A stretch of DNA of 64,000 nt from a virus (Duplodnaviria > Heunggongvirae > Uroviricota > Caudoviricetes), in the IMG/VR virus record IMGVR_UViG_3300023210_000016; one strand, given 5' to 3'. Position numbers and translations under genes: made by a program. Numbering within the stretch: the stretch's first letter is position 1; every line of letters starts with the position of its first letter. The notes below the pieces were generated by a model. That model worked only from the letters and a program-made list of their open reading frames with translations. It was not told the origin of the DNA and did no database searches. Shown here one piece after another: positions 51,412 to 51,678 of the stretch.

Positions 51412-51678
51412 TTAAAAGGAGTACGATATGCGTTTATACATTTGAACATTGTTGTGTGTGTGTGTGTGTGTGTGTGTGTGTGTGTAATAACGTTCTTCAT
51501 CTGCTTCCCACTGACACGAAACAGCATGTTTACAAGTGTCGCAACATCTGCCGTAACGGAACAAATCTAGCAGATATTGATCAGTCATCTTCATCCTCGT
51601 AAAGGTGTGGGTATTTCTGTTTATCTTCGGCCAGCCAATGCTCATAGGGAGTTGGGGCAGTTTTATGATTCTCGACAT
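51412..51678 (-). CDS. Small Cys-rich protein with a (His-Thr)5 repeat encoded by (CA)n; probable true start MKMTDQ at ~51592
   Basis: 'CCDTCKHAVSC...YYTHTHTHTHTH'; coding (TG)16 microsatellite at 51453..51485. Confidence 0.45.
   Translation of the reverse strand: MSRIIKLPQLPMSIGWPKINRNTHTFTRMKMTDQYLLDLFRYGRCCDTCKHAVSCQWEADEERYYTHTHTHTHTHNNVQMYKRISYSF
51453..51485. repeat. (TG)16 dinucleotide microsatellite within a CDS
   Basis: Read directly. Confidence 0.95.

Follow-up and report, generated by a model that had tools for sequence, protein, structure and literature searches.

A variable dinucleotide microsatellite in a small predicted gene of an uncultivated tailed phage and its probable exchange of three C-terminal protein tails

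What does a long dinucleotide repeat do inside a phage coding sequence, where the gain or loss of a single unit shifts the reading frame? We addressed this question for a (TG)n microsatellite in a 64,000-nucleotide (nt) stretch of DNA from a tailed phage (IMG/VR virus record IMGVR_UViG_3300023210_000016; this whole stretch is referred to as the window). The tract lies in a small Cys-rich open reading frame (ORF) on the minus strand. We consider it probable, at roughly 60%, that it is a genuinely hypermutable coding microsatellite that generates three C-terminal forms of a small protein, which in mechanistic terms would make it a contingency-type locus in a small accessory gene. The two central features are:

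51453..51485, minus strand: hypermutable dinucleotide microsatellite of 33 nt, (TG)16.5 on the plus strand and (AC)16A in the coding sense.
51412..51588, minus strand: small orphan ORF, 58 codons in the window allele, MTDQYLLDLFRYGRCCDTCKHAVSCQWEADEERYY(TH)5NNVQMYKRISYSF*, which probably represents a frameshifted form of a 61-aa protein.

Tandem Repeats Finder identified the tract as a perfect period-2 array of 16.5 copies with 100% matches, in line with the perfect 33-nt repeat that had been described from the sequence at the outset. A census of the 64 kb showed that this is the only long simple repeat in the window, other dinucleotide runs reaching at most 4 units and the longest homopolymers 7 bases; the number of (TG)16/(CA)16 occurrences expected from base composition in 64 kb is ~6e-15. 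The tract is flanked by the sequences GAACGTTATT and ACAATGTTCA. Minus-strand translation confirmed that it is part of a small Cys-rich ORF, in which it specifies a His-Thr repeat (THTHTHTHTH). The product reads RCCDTCKHAVSC...YY(TH)5, with the Cys cluster preceding the His-Thr stretch, and the translation, which contains RCCDTCKHAVSC and YYTHTHTHTHTHNN, ends ...GRCCDTCKHAVSCQWEADEERYYTHTHTHTHTHNNVQMYKRISYSF*. At least 120 contigs in IMG/VR contain (TG)16, among them giant-virus metagenome-assembled genomes and contigs of >1 Mb, and this abundance does not inform on coding repeats of phages. Long dinucleotide repeats are unusual in phages, in line with the initial remark that hypermutable simple repeats are uncommon in lytic phage coding sequence and with a survey of mycobacteriophages, in which the longest dinucleotide repeat was (AC)9 (PMC6426759).

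The hypermutability of the tract was assessed from other copies of the phage. Exact-protein look-ups with neighboring genes yielded sixteen distinct contigs of the same phage in assemblies from JGI, ENA (MEGAHIT and SPAdes), and Logan. The lengths of complete tracts were distributed as follows:

15 nt: one contig (JGI 3300027996).
17 nt: four contigs (ERZ27250502, ERZ27237606, JGI 3300027861 and ERZ4200951).
19 nt: three contigs (ERZ27250310, SRR7615656 and ERZ23491642).
31 nt: one contig (JGI 3300023276).
33 nt: the window and four contigs (JGI 3300023112, ERZ27250269, ERZ27250271 and ERZ4200959).

None of these five complete length alleles (15, 17, 19, 31, and 33 nt) contains an interruption, and the bases that flank the tract are the same throughout. 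In an ungapped comparison, flanks of up to 4 kb per side showed 0–3 mismatches, with no further gap needed. When a 20.2-kb contig carrying the 17-nt allele (L226) was aligned to the window with blastn, the identity was 99.9%, with 3 mismatches and a single 16-nt gap that corresponds to the tract. The tract is the sole insertion/deletion (indel) polymorphism over 20 kb, in genomes that differ by ~1.5 substitutions per 10 kb (about 1 in 7,000). Tract-length polymorphism among related genomes had been set as a test in the original prediction, and it was found, as five lengths on near-identical flanks that together cover all three frames; with respect to hypermutability, the proposed slipped-strand behavior was largely right.

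The 17-nt allele was found on two single-nucleotide polymorphism (SNP) backgrounds, one defined by a cluster at 47791/47793/47800 and the other by 50096C, and among the assemblies with 50096C, one has a 17-nt tract and another a 19-nt tract; hence, tract length is not simply a lineage marker. The cluster consists of three substitutions within 10 nt (47791..47800) in a Metallophos_2 gene and is common to ERZ27250502 and JGI 3300027861. For these two contigs, the cluster and the tract account for all differences from the window over 20 kb. Four JGI records with neighboring identifiers, Ga0233410, Ga0233411, Ga0233413, and Ga0233415, which are probably from one study, carry 31, 33, 15, and 17 nt, respectively; the literature was searched for the accession numbers and yielded no paper.

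A further four contigs, which come from three Logan runs, terminate within the tract. For SRR8436474, the upstream and downstream contigs both end after exactly 19 nt of repeat, and the contigs from SRR8436405 and SRR7615657 end at 19 nt and 27 nt, respectively. Because contigs built from de Bruijn graphs stop at branches, and because the stop depth is equal from both sides, we infer that SRR8436474 contains a mixture of 19-nt and longer alleles. Several other contigs (L086 / L243, from ERZ27250310, and L087, L095, and L090) have an end within ~20–270 nt of the tract or else between the genes for the 50-aa and 53-aa proteins, and the tract neighborhood is a general assembler break point. The tract explains the tendency of assemblies of this phage to break at this spot. 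Beyond these copies, searches of the same region against 50,697 phage records (megablast and blastn) gave no nucleotide-level relative, and exact-pattern scans of IMG/VR, JGI metagenome_contigs, and GTDB genome_contigs gave no close relative, so that the collections searched offer no diverged orthologues for comparison.

The consequences of these length differences follow from the reading frames. In all three frames, (CA)n reads His-Thr or Thr-His and is free of stop codons, which means that a 2-nt slip never truncates the product at the repeat. Since the tract begins at codon 36 of 58–61 and yields His-Thr whatever the frame, every allele encodes the Cys-rich stretch of 35 residues that precedes it. 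A slip changes only the number of His-Thr pairs (the tract contains 2 to 5 His residues, depending on the allele) and the frame of the sequence after the tract, in which stops occur 6, 13, or 22 codons beyond it. The predicted forms are:

17-nt allele: 61 aa, tail ...THTHT-TMFKCINAYRTPFKLWKIKDD, TGA overlapping the ATG of the next gene as ATGACTGA.
15- or 33-nt allele: 52 or 58 aa, tail NNVQMYKRISYSF, stop 17 nt before the ATG of the next gene.
19- or 31-nt allele: 46 aa (for 19 nt; 31 nt is in the same frame), tail QQCSNV, stop 39 nt before the next ATG.

In the window, the two tails that are not used by its own 33-nt allele are located at:

51387..51452, minus strand: alternative C-terminal frame TMFKCINAYRTPFKLWKIKDD*, whose TGA (51387..51389) overlaps the ATG (51392..51394) as ATGACTGA.
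51434..51452, minus strand: third-frame tail QQCSNV*, which holds the last five codons and the stop at 51434..51436.

The peptides TMFKCINAYRTPFK, NNVQMYKR, and QQCSNV are specific to the respective forms. The complete alleles are split 4:6:4 over the three frames, none of which is favored. It had been proposed that changes by units that are not multiples of three would switch the gene off. As stated, this did not hold, given that the Cys-rich N-terminal part is encoded in every frame. The accompanying proposal that tract changes alter the His-Thr length was correct, but the effect on the remainder of the protein is a swap of the C-terminal tail. As judged from the translations, the predicted outcome at this locus is a switch between protein forms rather than a clean on/off switch.

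Whether the ORF is a gene was judged from its boundaries and its codon usage. The gene extent originally given, 51412..51678, corresponds to the longest mechanical ORF (88 aa), but the likely gene is the shorter 51412..51588; the first 30 codons of the 88-aa ORF overlap an upstream 53-aa gene in another frame. The elements at the upstream boundary are:

51595..51598, minus strand: GAGG, a Shine-Dalgarno-like motif with a 6-nt spacer to the ATG at 51588, read from the sequence.
51581..51742, minus strand: upstream 53-aa gene, an orphan with a hydrophobic N-terminus and an acidic C-terminus, whose TGA overlaps the start of the small ORF.

The small ORF is likely to start with the ATG at 51588, which would give 58 codons. 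This start is plausible because the ATG overlaps the upstream TGA as ATGACTGA and has GAGG in front of it, and the gene callers used for public assemblies choose the same start and length (ATG 51588, 58 aa). The start lies in an 11-nt junction, AGATGACTGAT, which in the 17-nt allele recurs at the end of the small ORF. On the minus strand of the window, the junction is present at 51580..51590 and 51386..51396, at the start of each of two successive genes, the small ORF and the one after it, whose proteins both begin with MTD. The repeated junction may have arisen by a local duplication, or it may be a favored signal for stop-start overlap.

Codon usage was scored as log-odds per codon, using a model trained on 32 long genes of the window, for which real genes have a mean of +0.25 and a standard deviation of 0.15. 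The first 35 codons of the small ORF score +0.07, which corresponds to the 12.6th percentile of real genes and is attained by just 1.1% of off-frame windows. According to a Markov simulation, the chance that a 170-nt interval is open in a single bridging frame is ~0.06. The coding-like codon usage of the N-terminal part, this low chance of an open frame, and the GAGG motif together make it probable that the small ORF, as predicted, is a real gene. The tail of the 61-aa form scores +0.23, which is typical of real genes, and the other two tails score -0.19 and -0.37. Since its end repeats the AGATGACTGAT start junction and its tail has coding-like codon usage, the 61-aa form encoded by the 17-nt allele is probably the native form, and the 33-nt allele of the window is probably a frameshifted variant and not the reference form. 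Two plus-strand ORFs that run through the tract (MNIVVCVCVC..., 42 and 48 aa) were considered and rejected. Both are antisense to tightly packed minus-strand genes; the frame of the 42-aa ORF has a negative log-odds score of -0.29 per codon, and the 48-aa ORF, with a score near zero (+0.03), was ruled out on orientation alone.

The most conspicuous part of the small protein ahead of the repeat is the following cluster:

51514..51546, minus strand: C-C-x2-C-x-H-x3-C cluster (CCDTCKHAVSC), codons 15–25, candidate metal ligands taken from the translation.

Putative metal binding by this CCxxCxHxxxC cluster and the alternating His residues is a reasonable guess. The protein has one cluster only, and the two CxxC/CxxH pairs that make up a zinc-finger or zinc-ribbon pattern are not present. 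A Pfam search gave XPA_N as the best hit, which is below threshold (17.1 bits compared with a cut-off of 27.1), a search of PHROGs gave no match, and a sequence search of the Protein Data Bank gave no relative below E = 1. A single-sequence AlphaFold model was uninformative (predicted local distance difference test score, 49; predicted template modeling score, 0.26). Homologues of the small protein were sought in a word-indexed search of 5.8 billion proteins and in an exhaustive phmmer search of 1.84 billion representatives. No relatives of the upstream 53-aa protein were found, and the small ORF appears to be specific to this phage.

The three tails end at different distances from the next gene, which is the following:

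51122..51394, minus strand: downstream 90-aa gene, encoding a conserved N-terminal motif, ERWTNAEEIRLRAGEIDPEEMRTVLAVTRGFA, that is shared with other phages.

In unrelated phage contigs, the N-terminal half of its product (VIERWTNAEEIRLRAGEIDPEEMRTVLAVTRGFA; motif ERWTNAEEIRLRAGEID...) is 65–83% identical, and a search of IMG/VR with the 90-aa protein found nothing. Relatives of the gene are shorter (51–86 aa; L101 4001..4216, L105 2972..3166, and L244 2163..2387), and in these three longer contigs a gene resembling PTH2 (peptidyl-tRNA hydrolase) directly follows the relative. Neither a simple-repeat gene nor a recognizable relative of the small ORF was found beside the relatives in other phage contigs; in L101, an unrelated small Cys-rich (CxxC...CxxC) gene lies in front of the relative. 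Translation of the 90-aa gene may be coupled to that of the small ORF and may depend on the frame of the tract.

In our proposed mechanism, replication of the phage DNA would be accompanied by slipped-strand mispairing within the perfect (CA)n/(TG)n tract, by which 2-nt units would be added or removed. Each slip would keep the Cys-rich 35-residue N-terminal part, change the length of the His-Thr stretch, and shift translation among three tails, namely those of the 61-aa form, of the NNVQMYKRISYSF form seen in the window, and of the QQCSNV form. Natural populations would consequently hold a mixture of protein forms, possibly with varied translational coupling to the conserved downstream 90-aa gene.

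The genes around the tract form a long, tightly packed series of small minus-strand genes that have no known family, and public gene calls show noncoding gaps of 200–280 nt nearby. Elsewhere, the window encodes virion structural and baseplate-like proteins, and one of its larger proteins has distant relatives only (~31–34% identity), in Vibrio and Pseudoalteromonas phages; the source is an uncultivated tailed phage of roughly 100 kb. The surroundings of the tract look like an accessory or early region and not like a structural module. Genes of interest in this part of the window are:

57793..58554, minus strand: Apyc1 (anti-Pycsar) homologue of 253 aa with a metallo-beta-lactamase fold (Pfam Anti-Pycsar_Apyc1, 94 bits compared with a cut-off of 50).
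52297..52983, minus strand: 228-aa protein whose N-terminal domain matches phrog_10415 (E = 9e-30).
50608..51129, plus strand: 173-aa gene, the sole plus-strand gene in a long minus-strand block.
47656..48201: Metallophos_2 phosphoesterase, which adjoins the carbamoyltransferase gene.
44995..46482, minus strand: carbamoyltransferase of 495 aa (Carbam_trans_N/C, E = 9e-51), in the accessory region.

The Apyc1 homologue lies ~6 kb from the tract, and on the basis of this domain match the phage probably degrades cyclic-nucleotide defense signals. A 178-aa product at ~56190..56726 on the minus strand (L226 4863..5399) carries a precomputed PF26128 (Gad2, anti-Gabija) annotation; a Pfam scan of the corresponding 199-aa ORF returned nothing at E <= 1e-3, so the Gad2 label is unconfirmed. 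The 173-aa protein gave weak matches to homing endonucleases in PHROG (phrog_314, E = 3e-4), and its N-terminus resembles that of GIY-YIG enzymes (YVYELY...PFYVGW). The 3' ends of its gene and of the 90-aa gene overlap by 8 nt, and the 173-aa gene is present in all contigs examined. The 228-aa protein has 373 confirmed IMG/VR loci, in unrelated contexts and with 37–47% identity among the best 80 of the 373; its C-terminal part is Lys-rich, and its gene contains a 15-nt tandem duplication at 52453..52482.

Taken as a whole, the locus combines an uninterrupted repeat in an ORF, repeat-number polymorphism, and a change of frame with every 2-nt unit, which are among the characteristics expected of a contingency locus. 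Several points weigh against this interpretation. The tract lengths represent the consensus of different environmental assemblies rather than reads, and some assemblies possibly reassemble the same reads, so that the independent observations number at most sixteen. The lengths form two groups (15–19 nt and 27–33 nt) with none in between, a pattern that two sub-lineages with additional small steps could produce without free switching, and near-even use of the frames is equally expected of a neutral, tolerated repeat. The searches with the small protein returned only its own 61- and 58-aa alleles and one spurious long His-Thr-repeat protein, so that its reading as a gene draws on sequence features rather than on conservation or on the ratio of nonsynonymous to synonymous substitution. 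Furthermore, the 90-aa gene has a moderate GGAAG motif of its own, 7 nt before its ATG, and need therefore not depend on coupling.

These points bear most directly on the idea that the repeat is hypermutable but inert, meaning that mechanical instability in a dispensable young ORF or in an untranslated spacer drifts neutrally and is tolerated, an explanation that we regard as the less probable one while giving it appreciable weight. It would account for the lack of relatives of both the small protein and its 53-aa neighbor, for the about equal use of the three frames (4:6:4), which reveals no purifying selection on any tail, and for the harmlessness of slips, given that every frame stops within 6–22 codons; noncoding gaps of 200–280 nt do occur nearby, and a bridging frame is open by chance at ~0.06. 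Against this, the ORF overlaps its neighbors exactly at both start and stop via AGATGACTGAT, has a good GAGG before its ATG, and shows coding-like codon usage in its N-terminal part and in one tail only, and the persistence of an uninterrupted tract of 15–33 nt would itself need explaining, as phages are otherwise without long dinucleotide repeats. The possibility that the differences in length are a sequencing or assembly artifact, by PCR stutter or by collapse of the repeat in the assembler, is extremely small. Dinucleotide repeats are indeed prone to stutter, ERZ4200951 and ERZ4200959 have only about 2–3x coverage, and some contigs break at the tract; against this, the alleles differ by up to 18 nt, far more than the single unit by which stutter typically alters a length, identical lengths turn up in three assembly pipelines, and MEGAHIT k141 alone gives 17, 19, and 33 nt in different samples. 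Collapse is impossible for a tract much shorter than k = 141, and the 20-kb alignment contains no second indel.

We also considered a role at the level of mRNA or DNA, with the tract acting as an unstructured, CA-rich translation enhancer or ribosome standby site whose strength would depend on tract length, or as a (TG)n element prone to Z-DNA formation or recombination, and we regard such a role as very unlikely. PMC9031893, which cites Martin-Farmer and Janssen 1999, and PMC3879156 describe that CA repeats and ACA motifs enhance translation, with data for E. coli and Salmonella, and in the folds of both alleles the tract is an unpaired loop between GAACGUU and AAUGUUC. In the DNA, the corresponding imperfect inverted repeat, GAACGTT ... 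AATGTTC, brackets the tract (51445..51495), making the repeat the loop of a weak predicted hairpin. However, minimum-energy folds of the tract mRNA were not more stable than shuffles for either allele (z = +0.9 and +0.4), and the published enhancers act next to the start codon, whereas the tract is 58 nt upstream of the ATG of the 90-aa gene. An Rfam search of the tract region gave no family, only a chance scaRNA match (E = 0.14), and a scan for promoters and terminators stayed at about the shuffle level (promoters, 10 compared with 10.4; terminators, 7 compared with 3.8, with a standard deviation of 2.1); nothing separates this explanation from simple coding.

We thus return to the hypermutable coding microsatellite with three C-terminal forms as the preferred interpretation. 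The further proposal that this variation has been selected, as bet-hedging that affects an accessory gene whose region also includes an anti-defense gene, is tentative and seems to us somewhat less probable than not. Narrower still, and in our view unlikely, is a three-state switch in wild phage in which forms of a Cys/His metal-binding protein, together with a reset of coupling, would hedge against host defense systems. If the variation is adaptive, phage bet-hedging would extend to a new class of repeats and to a three-form switch instead of on/off, and the orphan protein would benefit the phage in some circumstances and harm it in others, as is typical of an anti-defense factor or a trigger of defense, and would be a candidate for such a role. 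If the three-state switch is true, no natural dinucleotide phase-variation system would have been described in a phage before it, and it would be the first to be observed directly in populations from the environment; a literature search, in a library that is incomplete, found no natural dinucleotide frame-switching locus in a phage. Even if it is neutral, the tract provides a fast-evolving strain marker for tracking the phage between samples.

Several known systems resemble this locus in part. Poly-CA/TG inserts in M13 were reportedly found by Levinson and Gutman in 1987 to undergo frequent 2-bp frameshifts during replication in the bacterial host; those were artificial inserts in a cloning vector with a lacZ reporter, whereas the present tract occurs in a natural phage gene and in natural populations. 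In Helicobacter pylori, genes for outer-membrane proteins such as oipA, sabA, and hopZ contain coding CT/AG dinucleotide repeats in the 5' signal-peptide region, and changes by 2-nt units cycle the gene through three frames, two of which abolish the protein, giving true on/off switching. The phage ORF shares with these genes the dinucleotide unit that shifts the frame by 2 nt, but its repeat falls within the final third of the coding sequence, and the N-terminal part is kept in all frames. For phages, Sorensen et al. are said to have described in 2021 a lytic Campylobacter phage with hypermutable polyG in coding regions and phenotypically mixed progeny, the polyG reportedly being located in receptor-binding or structural genes and acting by on/off truncation; here, by comparison, the repeat unit is the dinucleotide CA/TG, and the tract lies in a very small orphan gene that belongs to a nonstructural, accessory part of the genome.

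Natural instability of a frame-shifting repeat has seldom been reported for phages. The recently recognized phage contingency loci (polyG in 2021 and polyA in 2025) are all homopolymers in laboratory stocks, and the present locus adds a dinucleotide microsatellite with length alleles in all three frames in wild populations. In T2/T4 and other phages, Gomez, Barrick and Waters described homopolymer contingency loci, with runs of >=6 bases that vary by polymerase slippage, with frameshift variants in progeny and laboratory stocks and a known phenotype for agt and rIIA, and with enrichment of the repeats in genes of regulatory or unknown function; dinucleotide repeats are not mentioned in that study (bioRxiv 10.1101/2025.10.21.683753). 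The locus described here has in common with the T2/T4 loci a simple repeat inside a phage ORF, length variation, and frameshift. It differs from those mononucleotide runs with single-base changes in being a dinucleotide tract of 15–33 nt, with alleles that differ by multiples of 2 nt, and from those laboratory stocks in that its alleles come from the consensus of environmental assemblies and change only the C-terminal third of the protein.

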